Below are positions 2,814 through 43,014 of a DNA stretch of 64,000 nucleotides, piece after piece. Both the position numbers and the translations under genes were made by a program. The notes beneath the pieces were generated by a model. That model was given only the letters and a program-made list of their open reading frames with translations. It was not told the DNA's origin and did no database searches. Every line of letters starts with the position of its first letter. Position 1 is the stretch's first letter. Source of the stretch: an uncultured Gammaproteobacteria bacterium (GTDB lineage Bacteria > Patescibacteriota > Patescibacteriia > VMEV01 > CAYQCH01); assembly GCA_964503955.1 (NCBI GenBank), contig CAZDCG010000001.1, forward strand, positions 173,804 to 237,803, written 5' to 3'.

Positions 2814-4097
2814 CTAAATTTCAATCTGTATCGCCTTTTCCATGCGGCGGACATCAGCAAGCAATTCTTCGCGGGTATCGGCCGATAGCGTAATGTCTAA
2901 TACCTTGTTGAATCCGTCTTTTGAAAGCCCGGCCTTGTCTCCCACTTTCTTTACCATGATGAATTCCCGCAATGTCTTTAACTCGCGAACTTTTTTGATT
3001 CCTTTAATTGATTTAATCACCCCTTTCTTTTTGGGGAAGATATTAAATGACGCGACATATTTATGAATTTTTCTGTGCACCACCGGCTTTTCTCCCATGC
3101 GGGTAAGCAAATCATTCATCCCATGAGGGATATGATACGCCTCGCGGTACATTAGATCGCGGTGTCCGCCCATGCGCGCATCTACTTCAAGGACTTTCCA
3201 GCCTTCATCAAGTTTGATGAACTCCATATGCAGCATGCACGCGCGCAGCCCAAGCGCGATAACCGCTTTCTGGGCTACCTCCTGTGCCTTGGCTTCTTCT
3301 TCCAGAGTCAAACGCGTCGGCGTGATGTGTCGATAGGTGAAGAAATCATCCACGCCGATCTGCATGCCTGTTTTGTAGTGGGTGGCGGGCAGCAACGTAA
3401 TCTTCTGCCCGGTTTGATCGACATATCCGTCAATGGCGTAATTTTCTCCCTCCATGAATTGCTCCACAATCACCTCGGGTTCCACCATGGCTCCGTTTCT
3501 TTTATAAGCGCTGCGCAACCCGCGATACACCTTGCGCAAGGTTGATTGCAATTCTTCTTCATGAAAGCAGATGGATATCAAACGGCTGGCAGCCAGGCTC
3601 GCCGGCTTTACGATACAAGGAAAACCAACGTATTTCTTCACACGCTCCACGTCTTCTTTTCTTGCCCCATGAACCGATGTGAATTTCGGCGTGATTTCAG
3701 GGGCATAGCGTCGAAACTTTCGCCGCATGATGAGCTTATTGCCGCAAGCTTCCATGGAATCCTTGGTCGGCATAATCAAGTGCGGGAACAATCCGATCAA
3801 ATGCGCGTAAAGTGGCATGTAAAAAACCGAACGGCAGGAGACAACCATCACCTGGTCGCGGATCGGCATTAAAGCCTTTTCGATAGCCGCGGTATTCTTC
3901 ACGTCAACGGGAATAATAAAATCGATTTTTTCTTCCAACTCAGGATGTTTTGAAGGGACACGTTTATCAACCAAAAAAGCAACCCTTAACTTATAGCCAA
4001 GATGTTTTTCAAGATCTTTGACTGCCTGTAATGATTCAGGGATATAGGGCCCCACGTACAGGACAATATTTGGTTTTGATGGCATAAAAGAAAACAA
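2814..4097 (-). CDS. ATP-grasp domain protein (carboxylate-amine ligase-like)
   Basis: The 427-aa ORF has the central ATP-grasp fold, visible in ...GFPCIVKPASLAASRLISICFHEEEL...EQFMEGENYAIDGYVD...MLHMEFIKLDEGWKVLEVDARMGG. Confidence 0.7.
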   Translation of the reverse strand: MFSFMPSKPNIVLYVGPYIPESLQAVKDLEKHLGYKLRVAFLVDKRVPSKHPELEEKIDFIIPVDVKNTAAIEKALMPIRDQVMVVSCRSVFYMPLYAHLIGLFPHLIMPTKDSMEACGNKLIMRRKFRRYAPEITPKFTSVHGARKEDVERVKKYVGFPCIVKPASLAASRLISICFHEEELQSTLRKVYRGLRSAYKRNGAMVEPEVIVEQFMEGENYAIDGYVDQTGQKITLLPATHYKTGMQIGVDDFFTYRHITPTRLTLEEEAKAQEVAQKAVIALGLRACMLHMEFIKLDEGWKVLEVDARMGGHRDLMYREAYHIPHGMNDLLTRMGEKPVVHRKIHKYVASFNIFPKKKGVIKSIKGIKKVRELKTLREFIMVKKVGDKAGLSKDGFNKVLDITLSADTREELLADVRRMEKAIQIEI

Positions 4098-9124: not shown

Positions 9125-9176
9125 GAAGACCCGCCGTCCGCAGCATCGATCGACACTGCTTCTGGCGGGTCTCTTC
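9125..9176 (-). terminator. imperfect hairpin just downstream of the high-GC island's 3' gene
   Basis: The arms are gaagacccgcc ... ggcgggtct(c)ttc. It lies immediately 3' of the stop at 9191. Confidence 0.35.
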
Positions 9177-39746: not shown

Positions 39747-40175
39747 TTACTCACCTGGATAAAACTCAATAATCCACTCAATACCGTACTTGTCCCTAAA
39801 CATACCGGCATAAGAACCCCAGGGACCTTCGCCCATTGGCCCTTCTACGCTTCCTCCGGCAGAAAGACCGTTAAATAACCTGTCCGCTTCTTCCTTGCTT
39901 TGAGCCGTAACTAAAATTTTGCTCCTGTTCTCTTGCTCATTCACCTTCCCCATAAATTCCGGCACATCATTTCCCGTCAATACGCTGCCCTCGCCAATCG
40001 TCAACGTAATAAGCATGATTTTGTTTTCTTCTCCTTCCGGAACGGTGAATTCAGGACTCGCAAGGTCTTTGAAACGCACGATTTTCCCAAATTCCCCGCC
40101 GAATACTGATTGATAAAACGTAAACGCCTCTTCAGCGTTGCCATTGAAGTTGATCCAAGGATTGATTGTGGCCAT
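39747..40175 (-). CDS. VOC family protein (PhnB / 3-demethylubiquinone-9 3-methyltransferase-like glyoxalase fold)
   Basis: It begins MATINPWINFNGNAEEAFTFYQSVFGG. This is a paralog of the gene at 42045-42491. Confidence 0.8.
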   Translation of the reverse strand: MATINPWINFNGNAEEAFTFYQSVFGGEFGKIVRFKDLASPEFTVPEGEENKIMLITLTIGEGSVLTGNDVPEFMGKVNEQENRSKILVTAQSKEEADRLFNGLSAGGSVEGPMGEGPWGSYAGMFRDKYGIEWIIEFYPGE

Positions 40176-40297
40176 AGGTGAGTTAGATAAAACTAGATTG
40201 ATTGTACATTCCGGAATCAAAAATCACCAGCTTTTGCCGGTGATTTTTGATTGGCTCCCTTTGTTGGACTCATTTAGAACGGTTGATTGATATGCGA

Positions 40298-40570
40298 TTA
40301 AGAAACAGTTATCCTCAACTTCACGTTAAGGGCATCTGCCACCTTGTAAAGAAATTCTAAAGAGGGATTATACGATCCTGACTCAAACCGAGAAATAGCA
40401 GATTGTTTGGTGCCAATTTTTTTTGCTAAATCCGATTGAGAAATATTTTTCTCTAACCTTTTTTCTATCAACTCTTGAATAATCAAATACTCAGGTTCAA
40501 GCGCTTTGTAGCTCTTATTGACCTGCTTGTCTTTAAGCAATTCAGATTTTAGGGATTTATAGCTTTTCAT
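40298..40570 (-). CDS. HTH XRE-family antitoxin (HigA-like)
   Basis: The 90-aa ORF has a helix-turn-helix (ISQSDLAKKIGTKQSAISRFESG). It lies directly downstream of the RelE/ParE-like toxin. Confidence 0.75.
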   Translation of the reverse strand: MKSYKSLKSELLKDKQVNKSYKALEPEYLIIQELIEKRLEKNISQSDLAKKIGTKQSAISRFESGSYNPSLEFLYKVADALNVKLRITVS

Positions 40571-40593
40571 ATGGAATGAATATAACGTATATG

Positions 40594-40911
40594 TTATATA
40601 CTGTCAAGCGATGCTTTTCTTTCTTGTGCCAGCTTTAAGTGCTTTGCAGGTATCTTCTGACTCTTTTTCATAAAGCCATGCAAGATAATGGCTATTTTGC
40701 CAGATTGAAAAGTATAGATAAAGCGAACTTCTTGAACACCTCTAATTCGCAACTCATGCAATCCTTTTCCAATACTCTTTGAATGAGGCATTTTTAGATC
40801 TTCCCCAAATTGCTCAAGTAAATCAAAGGTACGCAAAACCTTGGCAATAGTTTGTTTCTCCAAACTCTTGATAAATTTTTCTATGTCTTCGTCATACAAC
40901 TTTATTTGCAT
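40594..40911 (-). CDS. type II toxin, RelE/ParE superfamily (HigB-like)
   Basis: It begins MQIKLYDEDIEKFIKSLEKQTIAKVLRTFDLLEQFGEDL and has KGLHELRI...IAIILHGFMKKSQKIP. The toxin-first order is typical of HigBA. Confidence 0.7.
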   Translation of the reverse strand: MQIKLYDEDIEKFIKSLEKQTIAKVLRTFDLLEQFGEDLKMPHSKSIGKGLHELRIRGVQEVRFIYTFQSGKIAIILHGFMKKSQKIPAKHLKLAQERKASLDSI

Positions 40912-40989
40912 AAAAAAACACGCCATTTCTTTTTAAAGAAGGGGCGTGGGCTGACATGTTGATTATAGCAGAAAAATATCAATCAAAAA

Positions 40990-41012
40990 ACTGGTCAAAG
41001 GACCAGCTTTTT
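40990..41012 (-). terminator. Rho-independent terminator after tRNA-Asn
   Basis: ctggtc aaag gaccag, with T-runs on both strands. Confidence 0.6.
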
Positions 41013-41015
41013 GAT

Positions 41016-41090
41016 TGGCTCCGAGGGTGGGACTCGAACCCACGACCAATTGGTTAACAGCCAACTGCTCTACCACTGAGCTACCTCGGA
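41016..41090 (-). tRNA. tRNA-Asn (anticodon GTT), CCA encoded
   Basis: The reverse complement folds as a cloverleaf (TCCGAGGTAGCTCAGTGGTAGAGCAGTTGGCTGTTAACCAATTGGTCGTGGGTTCGAGTCCCACCCTCGGAGCCA). The acceptor stem has 7 bp, the D stem is GCTC/GAGC and the anticodon loop is CTGTTAA. The T arm is GTGGG-TTCGAGT-CCCAC. Confidence 0.85.
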
Positions 41091-41326
41091 ATATTCTCGT
41101 CTAACCATTTTCTGCCTTGGCCAGACTTCAAGAAACGCTCTCTCTTTTCTGCTTCCCACCTGGTTTGAAAACCTTCACTGTGCATCAAGTTGAATGGGCC
41201 ATTCTGCCTCGTCCATTTATTTGATCCTGAATGATGATCTTTCAAGCGCTCAAGAGCGGTTTTTGAAGTATAACCAACGTAGCGTTTGTTATTTTTCAGA
41301 CTTCTCAGCACATAAACAAAAAACAT
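41081..41326 (-). CDS. GIY-YIG nuclease family protein (81 aa)
   Basis: MFFVYVLRSLKNNKRYVGYTSKTALERLKDHHSG.... The last codons and the TAG stop (IPR*) are positions 2-10 of the downstream tRNA-Asn. Confidence 0.8.
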   Translation of the reverse strand: MFFVYVLRSLKNNKRYVGYTSKTALERLKDHHSGSNKWTRQNGPFNLMHSEGFQTRWEAEKRERFLKSGQGRKWLDENIPR

Positions 41327-41361
41327 AAATTTATGGGCAGAGATTAATATTGTAAGGAGCT

Positions 41362-41431
41362 TGGTGAACAGCCCCAGCCATAGGCTGGTCCGCCTCTGGC
41401 GGAAACTGCTCTACCACTGAGCTACCTCGGA
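41362..41431 (-). pseudogene. degenerate partial tRNA-Asn copy (positions 1-28, a roughly 30-nt GC-hairpin insertion, then a mutated anticodon arm GGCTGTTCACCAAGC)
   Basis: 29 nt are identical to the tRNA 5' end. After the insert, 12 of 15 nt match tRNA positions 29-43. Confidence 0.55.
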
Positions 41432-41676
41432 ATATATATTCTTCTTTTTAAGAACGCTCTCCCAAACCCAGTTTTAAAGTATTTCTCACGAGCCTGGGAA
41501 TCTCTCTTCGACAAACAAGCCTCGTAGTAAATTAACTTCACGGGCCTACGGTAATTTGTCGAGGAAACATTTCCACTCTCGTGTTCACTTATCCTTCTTT
41601 GCAAGTCAGATGCACTACCGATGTAAAACTTATCATCCGAGCAAAGAAGTACATATGTGTAATGAAACCCTTCCAT
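41422..41676 (-). CDS. GIY-YIG nuclease family protein (84 aa)
   Basis: MEGFHYTYVLLCSDDKFYIGSASDLQRRISEHESG.... Its ATG directly abuts tRNA-like GAGCAGTTT, and its C-terminal IPR* plus TAG is supplied by the next pseudo-tRNA copy. Confidence 0.8.
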   Translation of the reverse strand: MEGFHYTYVLLCSDDKFYIGSASDLQRRISEHESGNVSSTNYRRPVKLIYYEACLSKRDSQAREKYFKTGFGRAFLKRRIYIPR

Positions 41677-41779
41677 AAACTGCTCCCCGCCGCTCAGCTA
41701 TGCAGAGCTGGCGGGCCCGCCTGCACTGAACGTAGCATAGCGCAGTGATGTGCGGCGGGTACCACTGAGCTACCTCGGA
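41677..41779 (-). pseudogene. partial tRNA-Asn copy (positions 1-20 and 21-28) interrupted in the D-loop by a 74-nt inverted-repeat element
   Basis: TCCGAGGTAGCTCAGTGGTA, then the 74-nt insert, then GAGCAGTTT. Confidence 0.55.
41686..41759. repeat. 74-nt GC-rich miniature insertion with 8-bp terminal inverted repeats CCCGCCGC / GCGGCGGG
   Basis: CCCGCCGCACATCACTGCGCTATGCTACGTTCAGTGCAGGCGGGCCCGCCAGCTCTGCATAGCTGAGCGGCGGG. A related copy about 85% identical over some 45 nt lies at 41906-41950. Confidence 0.5.
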
Positions 41780-41785
41780 ATACAA

Positions 41786-41815
41786 TTGACATTTGACTGT
41801 TGACCTTTGACTTGA
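41786..41815. repeat. heptamer tandem repeat (TTGAC on the plus strand, four times at 7-nt phasing)
   Basis: aatTGACAtTTGACTgTTGACCtTTGACTtg lies immediately 5' (minus-strand sense) of the pseudo-tRNA/GIY-YIG array. Confidence 0.4.
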
Positions 41816-41825
41816 AAGATCAACA

Positions 41826-41955
41826 TTCTTTGGATCAACTGCTCTACCACTGCCCGCCCGCCGGCTCCTAACGAGCGCTAGCGAGGATAAGCGGTGGGAG
41901 CTACCCCTGCCCGCCAGCACTGAACGAAGCATAGCGTAGTGATGTGCGGCGGGTC
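41826..41955 (-). pseudogene. fourth, most degenerate tRNA-Asn 5' fragment
   Basis: Minus-strand TCCGA + insert + GGGTAGCTC + insert + CAGTGGTAGAGCAGTTG. It carries two GC-rich insertions related to the 74-nt element. Confidence 0.45.
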
Positions 41956-42044
41956 GGAATAAGAAGAAAATGACCAGGAGAGCCGGCCATTTCCATGAAT
42001 ATCCTAACAGAATGAGACAAAAGAAGCAAGCTTGTTCCCTTCTC

Positions 42045-42491
42045 TTACGAAGCCTGCTTCTTCTCGGAAACCGCGATCATCCATTGCACGCCAAATTTAT
42101 CTGTAAACGACCCAAAATAGTCTCCCCAGAACATGTCCTGCATAGGCATTTCTACCTTGCCCCCTTCCGAGAGGGCCGCAAATAAACGGTCGGCTTCTTC
42201 CTTCTCATCAAGATTAAGGCTGATATAGACATTATTGCCCTGATTCAGCGTAAACCCCATGGATTCGGGAGCGTCTGTTCCCATGAGCAGCACACCGCCA
42301 TAGAGCGGAAGCGCGACATGCATCACAAGGTTTTTATCTTCCTCGGCAAGCGGCGGCATTCCTTCTTGCTGAGGGACGCTTCCCATGCGGGCAATGCCGC
42401 CGACGAATTCTGTTCCAAAAACCGATTTGTAGAAGGTAAAAGCTTCTTCGGTATTGCGTGAGAAATTAAGATAGATATTGGTTTGTGCCAT
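42045..42491 (-). CDS. VOC family protein (PhnB-like), paralog of 39747-40175
   Basis: MAQTNIYLNFSRNTEEAFTFYKSVFGTEF...KEEADRLFAALSEGGKVEMPMQD. It aligns along its whole length with the other VOC gene. Confidence 0.8.
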   Translation of the reverse strand: MAQTNIYLNFSRNTEEAFTFYKSVFGTEFVGGIARMGSVPQQEGMPPLAEEDKNLVMHVALPLYGGVLLMGTDAPESMGFTLNQGNNVYISLNLDEKEEADRLFAALSEGGKVEMPMQDMFWGDYFGSFTDKFGVQWMIAVSEKKQAS

Positions 42492-42522
42492 ATGACGATG
42501 TTAAGGTTAGCCGACTAGTGAC

Positions 42523-43014
42523 TTAAGCAGAGAGCAATTCTTCCAGCTGGTTAAGCCCCATGGAGAACCCTTCTTCAAAGCCCATTTCAATAATCTGCTT
42601 CATAGACTCCAGAGATGCGAATACCAGCTTGACCATGATCTTGGTTTGTCCGTCCTGCTCGCTGAACTGAATGTTCCAGTCCGTGGCCGGCATATCGGGA
42701 TTGAGATTCCCCTCTTCATCACAGAAAGCGTCTTTAGCGGTGAAACCATGTTCCGGATCAATCGTGAGATAATCAATCAAACTCCAGGATTTTGTTCCGT
42801 CCGGACCTTCCATGTAATACAGCCAGCGCCCGCCTTCCGAAAAATCAAAAGACTTGGTAACAGCTTTCCATGGTTTCGGCGCCCACCACGGTTCAAGCAA
42901 TTCCCGCGTAGTCCAGGCCTGCCACACCTTGGCGCGCGGAGCGGAAAACATGCGCTCAATGGTGATCGTCTTATTTGCTTCGTCTTTTGTCACGATTGGT
43001 TGTTGCATAGTCAC
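42523..43014 (-). CDS. SRPBCC domain protein (AHSA1 / activator of Hsp90 ATPase homolog-like)
   Basis: The 163-aa ORF carries ITIERMFSAPRAKVWQAWTTRELLEPWW. It is paired with the upstream ArsR gene, a common operon arrangement. Confidence 0.8.
   Translation of the reverse strand: MTMQQPIVTKDEANKTITIERMFSAPRAKVWQAWTTRELLEPWWAPKPWKAVTKSFDFSEGGRWLYYMEGPDGTKSWSLIDYLTIDPEHGFTAKDAFCDEEGNLNPDMPATDWNIQFSEQDGQTKIMVKLVFASLESMKQIIEMGFEEGFSMGLNQLEELLSA

Follow-up and report, generated by a model that had tools for sequence, protein, structure and literature searches.

Upstream of a tRNA-Asn gene in the 64-kb stretch of DNA analysed here (the window) lie three displaced copies of the 5′ part of that tRNA and two intact GIY-YIG nuclease genes, all on the minus strand. 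We consider it likely that miniature mobile cassettes of a homing type are stacked here in the 5′ half of the tRNA gene, each with a replacement 5′ part that repairs the invaded gene. The data behind this reading are the anatomy of the locus, a presence/absence polymorphism, an invariable linkage to tRNA genes among relatives, purifying selection on the nuclease, and hairpin types that track the nuclease family. A survey of the literature on GIY-YIG genes beside tRNA genes and related topics yielded no prior description of this cassette design, in keeping with the original prediction, which knew of none.

Anatomy of the tRNA-Asn locus

Read along the minus strand, the locus runs from displaced copy 4 through a spacer, copy 3, ORF B, copy 2 and ORF A to the intact tRNA-Asn(GTT) and its terminator, an order that agrees with the original prediction. 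The features are as follows, in window coordinates:

40980..41017, minus strand: terminator-like hairpin directly 3′ of the tRNA, with a 17 bp stem followed by a T-run
41016..41090, minus strand: intact tRNA-Asn(GTT), CCA encoded (ARAGORN; Rfam RF00005, 75.7 bits, E 4e-16)
41063..41403, minus strand: cassette A, a 341-bp unit missing in contig L088 (window/L088 alignment; 32-nt direct repeat at 341-nt spacing)
41081..41326, minus strand: GIY-YIG gene A (ORF A), 81 aa (Pfam PF01541, 6e-14)
41368..41373, minus strand: GGCTGT, tRNA positions 29-34, the tail of displaced copy 2, whose end is the cargo junction
41374..41403, minus strand: A-type twin hairpin TCCGCCagaGGCGGA CCAGCCtatGGCTGG, 30 nt, between tRNA positions 28 and 29 of copy 2
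41404..41431, minus strand: displaced copy 2, tRNA positions 1-28, identical to the real gene (0 mismatches; 0 such matches expected by chance)
41422..41676, minus strand: GIY-YIG gene B (ORF B), 84 aa, its stop codon within copy 2 (Pfam PF01541, 2e-15)
41677..41685, minus strand: GAGCAGTT(T), tRNA positions 21-28 of displaced copy 3, adjoining the ATG of ORF B
41686..41759, minus strand: two B-type hairpins, CCCGCC-32 nt-GGCGGG and CCCGCC-18 nt-GGCGGG, between positions 20 and 21 of copy 3
41760..41779, minus strand: displaced copy 3, tRNA positions 1-20
41780..41836, minus strand: ORF-less spacer between copies 4 and 3
41837..41958, minus strand: displaced copy 4, three tRNA pieces (1-5, about 6-13 and 13-28) parted by hairpins

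Cassette A comprises, in minus-strand order, the twin hairpin, GGCTGT, a 41-nt leader, ORF A, and ATAT followed by tRNA positions 1-28; the register of its ends is ambiguous inside the 32-nt direct repeat. Both ORFs terminate within a tRNA 5′ copy (..ATT CCG AGG TAG), with tRNA positions 8-10 serving as the stop codon. Both components of the predicted mobile unit, the nuclease gene and some 30 nt from the tRNA 5′ part, are present, but a conserved hairpin module had been overlooked. The same module changes the picture of the displaced copies, each of which was thought to retain positions 1-28 and to break there. Copy 2 does retain these positions contiguously, but GC-rich hairpins interrupt copies 3 and 4, and copy 2 resumes with positions 29-34 after its twin hairpin instead of ending at position 28. 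An ORF start immediately after the break was borne out for ORF B, whose ATG adjoins GAGCAGTTT, but not for ORF A, whose ATG lies 41 nt after GGCTGT.

The pieces of copy 4 correspond to tRNA positions 1-5 (41958-41954), about 6-13 (41905-41898) and 13-28 (41852-41837), and its inserts are a B-type hairpin (41910-41953), 93% identical to that of copy 3, and an imperfect hairpin (41853-41897). A 46-nt hairpin is common to copies 3 and 4, at two different positions, which points to mobility of the hairpin. The spacer between these copies is probably the remnant of a third cassette, and an 18-nt stretch of it (41811-41828) matches, in reverse complement, the ORF A codons for LKDHHS (41229-41246) at 94%. 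In the same spacer, TRF resolves the supposed heptamer repeat into about 2 copies of a 14-mer (41786-41812).

These elements are particular to the locus. No tRNA-derived 12-mer occurs elsewhere in the 64 kb window, the hairpin modules are confined within the window to the tRNA-Asn locus, and the exact 28-mer is not the common repeat that it might have been, being found only twice (real tRNA and copy 2), with 0 expected by chance. A CCCGCC..GGCGGG hairpin at 9130-9169 was considered as a related element and rejected, as it looks like an ordinary inter-ORF hairpin. Rfam detected no known structured RNA in the locus besides tRNA, and no group I or group II intron at E<=1 in 40000-43000; the window tRNA has no intron. 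In a scan of the 64-kb window, this gene was apparently the sole tRNA-Asn gene.

GIY-YIG families, tRNA linkage and a possible empty site

Both proteins fall in the GIY-YIG superfamily, as had been predicted, scoring 52.5 and 57.0 bits against PF01541 (cut-off 22.6). Its catalytic residues and fold are present: Y5, Y16, G18, R27, H31 and E63 are invariant in 24 sequences, and the AF2 model of ORF A (pLDDT 94) has the expected topology, matching UPF0213, Slx1, I-TevI and UvrC N-terminal domains. In sequence and fold, the closest matches are 1ywl (4e-7) and 1zg2 (6e-7), with Slx1 at TM 0.65-0.67. A and B are catalytic-domain-only GIY-YIG proteins, closest to the UPF0213/Slx1 clade. Like UPF0213/YhbQ and Slx1, they have the minimal beta-beta-alpha-alpha-beta-alpha-alpha core; unlike them, UPF0213 proteins are without an assigned mobile role, and Slx1 has a RING/Zn domain and a partner, Slx4. 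In family A the C-terminus bears a distinct conserved motif, FLKSGQGRKWLD. The catalytic core fills the whole length of both proteins (81 and 84 aa), with no DNA-binding domain of the tethered kind seen in I-TevI, I-BmoI and Seg, and the NCBIfam group I intron endonuclease model gives 18-22 bits (cut-off 56); the proteins are not I-TevI/Seg-type enzymes. PADLOC and NCBIfam gave no meaningful match to a defence system or a named family, and membership of either was rejected on these grounds. A dN/dS of 0.08 for gene A relative to its homologue at locus L171 indicates strong purifying selection on the protein. We infer that the proteins may be active nucleases that cleave the tRNA gene, with a role for the hairpins, and the fixed hairpin and junction positions suggest where they would cut.

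An exact-sequence look-up of the window ORF A gave no match, and relatives were reached through P0121, P0002 and P0241. Gene A has 369 homologues, mostly 81 aa, from Patescibacteria; 482 relatives were confirmed in species-representative genomes, and the best 80 loci were analysed. A same-strand tRNA lies -7..+152 nt downstream in 58 of these best 80 family-A loci. Among the remaining loci with enough downstream sequence, tRNA 5′ sequence was present in 18/18, and 11 of those 18 hold Rfam-confirmed, intron-split tRNA-Asn genes. Overall, the family-A gene is directly upstream of a tRNA gene in 76/76 evaluable related loci, in unrelated genomic contexts. Most target tRNAs are Asn; the others are Pro, Val, Ile, Thr, Lys, Met, Ala, Arg and Phe. 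From one locus to the next the order of parts stays the same: tRNA(1..n), hairpin module, as a rule 5-9 further tRNA bases, short leader, ORF and complete tRNA. The anticodon stem of tRNA-Asn, named as the target by the original prediction, is the site of the break in the Asn class, but most other tRNAs are broken in the D-arm, and the family is not Asn-specific.

The duplicated segment starts at the tRNA 5′ end. Across 60 units from 59 loci (including four obtained otherwise: L001, L004, the second L085 match and the window), 9-mers taken from tRNA positions 1-4 are found again before the ORF in 39-40/60, a signal that falls away beyond start 20, with 0-9 in the downstream control. Target tRNA classes are scattered over the protein tree. 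The displaced copies agree with the tRNA of their own locus, including cases in which hosts differ in their acceptor stems. Such agreement is not expected of simple homing between species and would require either gene conversion or duplicated recipient DNA. ORF-less derivatives and tandem amplification were found at L018, L028, L090 and L171.

ORF B has 895 homologues. Family B follows the same layout rule with its own hairpin type, which stands at the same relative place in B-family loci elsewhere. Only 31/80 of its genes adjoin a tRNA, which weighs against the homing-type reading; some members sit in protein-coding genes with duplicated 5′ ends, and the ORF can itself lie inside a long inverted repeat. 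Proteins A and B are only 31% identical and their hairpin types differ; recent duplication in place was therefore not their origin. IMG/VR viral contigs contained only one good match to the family, and a phage origin was rejected on this basis.

The divergence of A and B and the invariable tRNA linkage of family A both support the repeated, independent insertion of a minimal mobile unit that had been proposed, as does an empty site. Contig L088, from another sample, has no mismatch to the window over about 770 shared bases; the match runs from the upstream VOC gene through ORF B and then straight into the intact tRNA. L088 lacks exactly the 341-bp gene-A unit, and cassette A is therefore a discrete presence/absence polymorphism, of the kind by which homing endonuclease genes are recognised, seen between the window and a 1-kb contig and compatible with an event in either direction. 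L088 is a short-read contig and the repeat spans 32 nt; an assembly path artefact at the junction is unlikely. L088 could, instead of an ancestral empty site, be a deletion product: because the regenerated tRNA is identical to the empty target, it should remain cleavable, and a break in it would tend to remove the cassette, through annealing between the 32-nt repeats.

The hairpin module and possible routes of insertion

The A-type twin hairpin occurs as an adjacent pair in 62/80 related units, with at least one such hairpin in 78/80. In short-loop pairs the first loop is purine-rich (65/67) and the second pyrimidine-rich (66/67), an order that is symmetric under reverse complement; cassette zones contain 239 short-loop hairpins, an 11-fold enrichment. 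With many copies, different sites and nesting of one hairpin inside the loop of another (L027, L171), the module has the properties of a miniature palindromic repeat element (REP/MITE/double-hairpin-like). Stem mismatches are without strand bias (6 G.T vs 6 C.A), leaving an RNA-only role unsupported; given how strongly the leader folds as RNA (-43.4 kcal/mol, z -3.8), the hairpins may nevertheless act at the RNA level. A single sequence motif was rejected as the target: many units contain a fit to CAGTT^GG, but within the Asn class the pair of bases preceding the hairpin on its left is variable (TT, TG, TC, GG, CT, CC), and other classes use different sites. A palindromic target was likewise rejected as not general.

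In the homing-type reading that we prefer, a cassette consists of a GC-rich hairpin module, a short leader, a GIY-YIG gene and a replacement tRNA 5′ copy. The nuclease would break the tRNA gene near the hairpin and junction positions, 28/29 and 34/35 for cassette A, and the cassette would spread by break repair with the tRNA itself as a homology arm. Because the ORF reads into the replacement copy and takes its stop codon from tRNA positions 8-10, insertion would regenerate a complete tRNA gene downstream, and a target that is always rebuilt could be invaded again. The original 5′ part would be left upstream as a dead copy bearing the hairpin module, which may either destroy the nuclease site in that copy or be the structure recognised by an Slx1-like enzyme. 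Cassette A, adjoining the tRNA, would be the newest, with the older B and the ORF-less remnant pushed upstream, where the dead copies of older cassettes would gather further hairpin inserts. ORF and tRNA probably share one transcript, in which the ORF forms the 5′ leader of the tRNA.

The hairpins could instead be the moving part. In a rather unlikely alternative, hairpin and ORF together form a transposon whose Slx1-like nuclease sees DNA structure (extruded hairpins, or cloverleaf-like folds of the unwound tRNA gene), and the tRNA duplicate is a long target-site duplication from a staggered cut in the recipient. Such a transposon would fit the closest structures, which are Slx1 structure-specific nucleases, as well as the dyad symmetry of the twin hairpin, its unbiased stem mismatches, the nested hairpins and the family-B ORF inside a long inverted repeat. 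It would also fit the co-variation of hairpin type with nuclease family, the usual spacing of 5-9 nt from hairpin to downstream cargo junction, and the agreement of displaced copies with the local tRNA, as expected of a target-site duplication. Yet a simple staggered cut leaves one feature unexplained: wherever the insertion point lies, the left edge of the duplication always coincides with the 5′ end of the tRNA. We also know of no strand transfer by GIY-YIG enzymes. A-type units moreover carry hairpins on their left side only, with none at the right end, and their sole ORF is GIY-YIG; this differs from IS200/IS605 elements, with an HUH (Y1) transposase or TnpB and hairpins at both ends.

Integration by a single crossover is a more improbable route, in which a small circle carrying tRNA(1..n) and the hairpin would recombine, Campbell-fashion, with the chromosomal tRNA through host homologous or site-specific recombination. 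The topology of dead copy, cargo, full gene and 32-nt direct repeats is exactly that of a single-crossover product, and, as in integrase-bearing islands and prophages at tRNA genes, a partial tRNA duplicate lies at one end and the intact gene at the other. Integrases, however, usually duplicate the tRNA 3′ part. The duplicate here is the 5′ part, positions 1-28(34), and not the 3′ segment of an integrase att core; no recombinase or integrase was found in the 341-bp unit or in the 13 neighbouring ORFs scanned (32.0-40.9 and 42.0-44.5 kb), ten of which are large ORFs at 32.0-40.2 and 42.5-44.5 kb, and a circle of about 340 bp was never observed here. Partial tRNA duplication by integrating elements is well known, and those elements, unlike the 341 bp unit with its duplicated 5′ part, measure 9-120 kb and carry a recombinase (10.1101/2022.07.05.498093).

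That the ORFs are ordinary, immobile YhbQ/UPF0213-like host genes co-transcribed with tRNAs, their fragments a product of local duplication or slippage, is very improbable and already disfavoured: the closest solved relatives are UPF0213 proteins, selection is strongly purifying and the family is nearly absent from viral contigs, but the linkage extends to ten different tRNA species in unrelated neighbourhoods, the dead copy is always present with its break at a fixed offset from the hairpin, presence/absence varies within one species, one gene carries a stack of two divergent families, the protein tree does not group its members by target class, and family-B members lie inside protein-coding genes with duplicated 5′ ends.

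Relation to known elements and implications

The homing-type cassette shares traits with several described systems. As with Seg genes, which gain preferential inheritance through break repair, its GIY-YIG gene lies free between or next to genes and is tRNA-associated. Seg proteins measure about 200 aa or more and include a DNA-binding domain; they are encoded by phage genes that lie between intact genes and are not known to create a partial duplicate of the target. The cassette differs in its 81-84 aa protein of the UPF0213/Slx1 clade, its chromosomal place in Patescibacteria, its position inside a tRNA gene that it rebuilds, and its hairpin module. Among Seg genes, SegB is a free-standing GIY-YIG gene of T4-like phages located in the T4 tRNA gene cluster (PMC2330249), and has been linked to segmental amplification of tRNA loci (PMC13096335).

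A spare gene end brought by an endonuclease ORF into an essential gene is also the design of atp6/ORF360 in Allomyces. There, a mitochondrial endonuclease ORF is said to have been inserted with a spare copy of the gene end, the original end becoming a pseudo-copy. That case, unlike ours, involves protein-coding genes, duplicated 3′ ends, organelles and larger endonucleases, and we know of no fixed spatial rule in Allomyces between double hairpin and ORF. According to the account in PMC3787672, G+C-rich elements of Allomyces mtDNA that fold into two hairpins were reported to be mobile (Paquin et al. 2000).

A third comparison is collaborative homing, described for the free-standing F-CphI gene and an ORF-less group I intron of psbA in cyanophage (PMC6083498). 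Patescibacteria tRNA-Asn genes carry group I introns at position 35/36 (PMC13011429), a site with which the end of the A-type displaced copy (GGCTGT|) coincides in the Asn class. The tRNA-Asn just downstream of a family-A gene has such a 35/36 intron at 11 Rfam-confirmed loci, with 3 more alike, and most of these 11+3 introns are without an endonuclease gene of their own. Unlike in collaborative homing, the window tRNA has no intron, and other tRNAs are broken in the D-arm, where no introns occur. Nor is this the layout of an intron-encoded homing endonuclease, with its ORF in a self-splicing intron; in relatives the ORF precedes the tRNA and is not part of the intron. The displaced copy was also considered as the 5′ exon of a decayed intron and rejected, since displaced copies show nothing resembling an internal guide after GGCTGT and the D-arm classes lack any intron equivalent. 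About 14/47 A-type cassettes adjoin an intron, vs 15/95 complete genomes in PMC13011429, two samplings too different for comparison. That paper, from 2026, makes no mention of GIY-YIG genes, hairpins or displaced 5′ exons.

More tentatively, and with rather less confidence than we place in the homing-type reading, the hairpin module and its 81-aa Slx1/UPF0213-like nuclease may constitute an unrecognised class of bacterial mobile element. It would be guided by structure (its own hairpins and the stem-loops of tRNA genes), rendered harmless by the 5′ copy that it carries, and able to supply endonuclease in trans to ORF-less 35/36 introns. The cassette is in any case a testable candidate for the mobiliser of endonuclease-less group I introns in Patescibacteria tRNA-Asn, where a recent survey ascribed little mobility to the introns (PMC13011429).

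How a bare GIY-YIG core recognises its target is a question posed by a nuclease of 81 residues that apparently locates a defined position in tRNA genes, accompanied by a 30-nt dyad-symmetric module whose type follows the nuclease family; very small programmable or structure-specific nucleases could also come of it. For genome annotation, displaced 5′ copies, hairpin inserts and introns confound the calling of tRNA genes: ARAGORN missed tRNA-Asn in 22/80 loci, at least 11 of them owing to introns. Because the stop codon lies within the tRNA, RNase P processing of the co-transcript is predicted to strip the stop from the nuclease mRNA, which might act as a built-in limit on how much nuclease is made. 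On the homing-type reading, the locus shows how a selfish element can occupy what is apparently the window's sole tRNA-Asn gene by bringing a replacement for the part that it displaces, so that the target is never lost; a target that is kept and can be re-invaded would explain the stacked arrays.

Anatomy of the tRNA-Asn locus

Read on the minus strand from 41960 to 40980, the locus resolves into a compact series of elements, here ordered from upstream to downstream.

42045-42491, minus strand: VOC/glyoxalase gene, bounding the locus upstream
41422-41676, minus strand: intact ORF B, 84 aa, Pfam GIY-YIG, well over threshold
41403-41374, minus strand: twin hairpin of 30 nt, TCCGCCagaGGCGGA CCAGCCtatGGCTGG, within copy 2
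41081-41326, minus strand: intact ORF A, 81 aa, Pfam GIY-YIG, well over threshold
41016-41090, minus strand: intact tRNA-Asn(GTT), called by ARAGORN, Rfam 75.7 bits
Directly 3′ of tRNA-Asn, minus strand: strong terminator hairpin
40298-40926, minus strand: HigB/Gp49-like toxin (110 aa) and HTH antitoxin (90 aa) pair, directly past the tRNA terminator

Three displaced tRNA 5′ parts (copies 2, 3 and 4, numbered outward) accompany the one complete tRNA-Asn gene, and both the parts and their order along the strand are as originally predicted. The 28-mer TCCGAGGTAGCTCAGTGGTAGAGCAGTT is present in exactly two places, with zero expected, and no tRNA-derived 12-mer was found outside the locus across the 64-kb window. 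The original prediction also held that every partial copy preserves tRNA positions 1-28 before breaking, and that each ORF starts immediately at such a break. All copies do hold the same tRNA bases, but only copy 2 holds them contiguously; in copies 3 and 4 they are broken up by GC-rich hairpins (CCCGCC, an 18-32 nt loop, GGCGGG), with the same 46-nt hairpin (93% identity) appearing past position 20 in copy 3 and again past position 5 in copy 4. Nor does ORF A abut the break in copy 2: positions 1-28 are followed by the twin hairpin and then by GGCTGT (tRNA 29-34), and ORF A starts 41 nt further on. Both ORFs end within a tRNA 5′ copy (ATT CCG AGG TAG), so that the tRNA supplies their stop codon as its positions 8-10.

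Several other features were observed in the window. VOC/glyoxalase-type paralogues at 39747-40220 and 42045-42491 (minus strand, 47% identical) enclose both the tRNA array and the toxin-antitoxin genes. The upstream VOC gene has a terminator-like hairpin at 41966-41994 (minus strand) whose T-run ends ~8 nt before copy 4, and no sigma-70-like promoter was found in 40900-42100. Within the ORF-less spacer between copies 4 and 3, an 18-nt stretch (41811-41828) matches the reverse complement of the ORF A codons LKDHHS (41229-41246) at 94% and may be what is left of a decayed A-like gene in inverted orientation. A CCCGCC-28 nt-GGCGGG hairpin lying between ORFs at 9130-9169 shares its stem letters with the hairpins of copies 3 and 4; we rejected it as a module of that type, as it resembles an ordinary terminator and stands without tRNA or GIY-YIG context.

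Presence and absence of a 341-bp cassette

Two short contigs, both from other samples, encode the exact ORF B protein. Contig L088 matches the window with zero mismatches over ~770 shared bases, spanning the VOC gene, copy 4, copy 3 and ORF B. Past ORF B, its ...GAGCAGTT is joined straight to GGCTGTTAACC..., the remainder of the intact tRNA. What the window has in addition at this point is exactly 341 bp, comprising the twin hairpin, GGCTGT, the leader, ORF A, and ATAT plus tRNA 1-28, and this length equals the spacing of a 32-nt direct repeat in the window. The cassette is thus a discrete unit, present or absent. ORF A and ORF B share only 31% identity, which argues that the stack reflects separate arrivals with no recent in-place duplication; together with L088, this supports the proposal that a minimal unit inserted repeatedly.

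Other contigs carry variants of these arrays. In L089 (JGI 3300009095, 855-958), ORF B runs on into another displaced copy of the copy-3 type, complete with its hairpins, after which ORF B begins anew; either cassette B has been duplicated in tandem in another population or the contig holds an assembly loop. L171, in a different neighbourhood, has an ORF A from the same 90%-identity cluster (72/81 residues identical), and its array includes ORF-less units. Because a short spacer in these units fuses the leader start to the final ORF codons, they are internal-deletion derivatives.

Two nuclease families and their hairpin modules

ORF A has 369 close homologues, mostly of exactly 81 aa, and the named ones are Patescibacteria. 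The organism carrying the window is most likely a patescibacterium too, going by the top named hits for a nearby oxidoreductase. In species-representative genomes 482 relatives were confirmed by a scan, and we examined the best 80 loci. A same-strand tRNA gene lies -7 to +152 nt downstream in 58 of these; among the 22 others, four have no more than about 50-60 nt of sequence past the ORF, and all 18 that remain carry tRNA 5′ sequence directly downstream. Eleven of the 18 have a tRNA-Asn split by a group I intron (Rfam, 54-104 bits; L019, L026, L027, L028, L032, L037, L039, L059, L074, L078, L087), three more look alike, apparently with a different, below-threshold intron subtype (L033, L044, L079), and the rest are arrays or are broken by contig ends or N-masks. 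Searching beyond the window for small GIY-YIG ORFs abutting tRNA 5′ sequence, as the original prediction proposed, therefore found tRNA linkage for 76/76 evaluable genes from the best 80 loci. The target is mostly tRNA-Asn, with Pro, Val, Ile, Thr, Lys, Met, Ala, Arg and Phe also represented.

Across 80 parsed units the layout follows one rule: tRNA(1..n), hairpin module, tRNA(n+1..n+k), leader, ATG...ORF, complete tRNA, with k usually 5-9 and a leader of 8-70 nt. The value of n depends on the target.

Hairpin position by target class
n=28: main Asn class; two bases on the left vary, GRCTGT on the right is constant
n=12: second Asn class
n=17, ...GCTCAGTT^GG...: Pro, Val, Ile, Thr, Met, Phe
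n=8: Ala
n=12-13: Lys and one Met

The cassette always sits in the 5′ half of the tRNA gene, with a displaced 5′ copy upstream and the complete gene downstream, and a family-specific hairpin module accompanies it. A 9-mer profile covered 60 units from 59 loci (scan loci with a tRNA and sufficient upstream sequence, together with L001, L004, the second hit of L085 and the window). The 9-mers from tRNA positions 1-4 recurred in the 500 nt preceding the ORF in 39-40/60 units and those starting at 13-20 in 17-24/60; further starts gave almost none, and the downstream control gave 0-9. Hairpins are present in 78/80 units and an adjacent pair in 62/80; their density is 4.0 per kb in cassette zones versus 0.35 per kb, an 11-fold enrichment. 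Stems covary (TCCGCC/GGCGGA, TCAGCC/GGCTGA, CCAGCC/GGCTGG, CCCGCC/GGCGGG), and stem mismatches showed no transcript-strand bias. Loop 1 is purine-rich in 65/67 pairs and loop 2 pyrimidine-rich in 66/67, making the 30-nt module dyad-symmetric.

In the 14 intron-split tRNA-Asn genes linked to family A, the group I intron follows GGCTGT directly, at position 35/36, and ARAGORN called none of these genes. As a hypothesis, the intron could protect the functional gene in intron-bearing relatives and be co-mobilised with the cassette. A 2026 survey reported group I introns at 35/36 in Patescibacteria tRNA-Asn and tRNA-Asp, with HNH genes in a few and most lacking endonucleases and poorly mobile (PMC13011429); GIY-YIG genes, hairpins and displaced 5′ exons are absent from that survey and from its preprint.

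Additional genes were observed at some family-A loci. At six of them another GIY-YIG gene, only distantly related (32-40% identity to A), follows the first one at 170-1940 nt (L078, about 2830-3830; L032, 3291-3524; L044, 4673-4891; L064, 2911-3138; L071, 3106-3330; L085, 3397-3615); that of L085 lies upstream of tRNA-Met, and those of L078 and L032 just past the Rfam intron match (ending at 3441 and 3100, respectively). In L004, an 81-aa 23S_rRNA_IVP (PF05635) gene at 2556-2801, a type of small gene often found within stable-RNA genes, stands just 5′ of the displaced tRNA copy.

Family B comprises 895 homologues, with at least 579 confirmed relatives among candidate stretches of a metagenome scan. 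tRNA linkage was found in 31 of 80 loci examined, which follow the same layout rule with their own hairpin type, CCCGCCCGCC...GGCGGGCGGG, as in the window; hairpin type thus travels with the nuclease family. Seven loci (L101, L103, L107, L113, L117, L128, L158) show a mirror-image form, with the complete tRNA directly upstream of the ORF and a GC hairpin and displaced tRNA 3′ end (GGTTCGA...CGCGCA) downstream. Family-B cassettes also occur in protein-coding genes, with the gene start duplicated: in L148 (about 1400-1800), ~50 nt from the start of a putative glycosyltransferase gene occur twice and a long GC-rich inverted repeat surrounds the ORF, and in L141 (about 250-760) the cassette sits in an NAD-dependent epimerase gene, at its GxxGxxG-coding stretch. 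Other ORFs (L096, L150, L168; L109, L144, L165) lie within non-GC inverted repeats, CCCCGTTAGAG../..CTCTAACGGGG or TACCCTGTTAAATAA/TTATTTAACAGGGTA, which may be further hairpin families.

The nuclease and a model for cassette spread

Family A has 26 invariant columns, including the GIY and YIG tyrosines, R27, H31 and E63, and its confident AlphaFold model (pLDDT 94) shows the topology of a GIY-YIG core and no additional domain. The closest sequence relatives of solved structure are UPF0213 proteins (4e-7, 6e-7). By fold, UPF0213 and the Slx1 nuclease domain come closest (TM 0.65-0.67), and I-TevI's catalytic domain matches less well. The ORF is under selection (dN/dS 0.08, dS 0.72 for ORF A versus the L171 copy). 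No specific NCBIfam or PADLOC family was found for the protein, and viral contigs gave only one good match. On a neighbour-joining tree, of low resolution given the short proteins, target classes form small clades scattered within the Asn class, implying several target switches.

We propose that the nuclease would break the tRNA gene near two marked positions, the hairpin site and the cargo junction; repair would copy the cassette using tRNA sequence as homology, and the carried 5′ copy would restore the gene. The restored gene would again be a target, so that cassettes would stack with the newest adjoining the tRNA, while older displaced copies would gather further hairpins. The hairpin may be an insertion destroying the nuclease site in the dispensable copy, or a structure recognised by the Slx1-like enzyme. 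Displaced copies follow the local tRNA sequence even in hosts whose acceptor stems differ, which suggests that recipient DNA is duplicated or that gene conversion is frequent.

A literature search covering GIY-YIG and tRNA genes, UPF0213/COG2827/YhbQ, Patescibacteria tRNA introns, free-standing endonucleases and mobile elements did not find this arrangement described. Its nearest known counterparts include the Allomyces mitochondrial atp6/ORF360 insertion with its duplicated gene end, and integrase-driven partial tRNA duplication. Also close are free-standing Seg endonucleases in phage tRNA clusters (PMC2330249), collaborative homing between free-standing endonucleases and introns (PMC6083498), and mobile double-hairpin elements of Allomyces mitochondrial genomes, as cited in PMC3787672. 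From the Seg, collaborative-homing, integrase and Allomyces systems, the present cassette differs in host, size, enzyme clade, duplicated end or obligatory hairpin module. Most likely, the finding belongs to free-standing homing-type endonuclease cassettes that repair their own target; as a less probable but still reasonable alternative, the hairpin-plus-mini-nuclease design may constitute a mechanism of its own. The observation stands, its original interpretation holds in essentials, and such cassettes extend far beyond this single locus.
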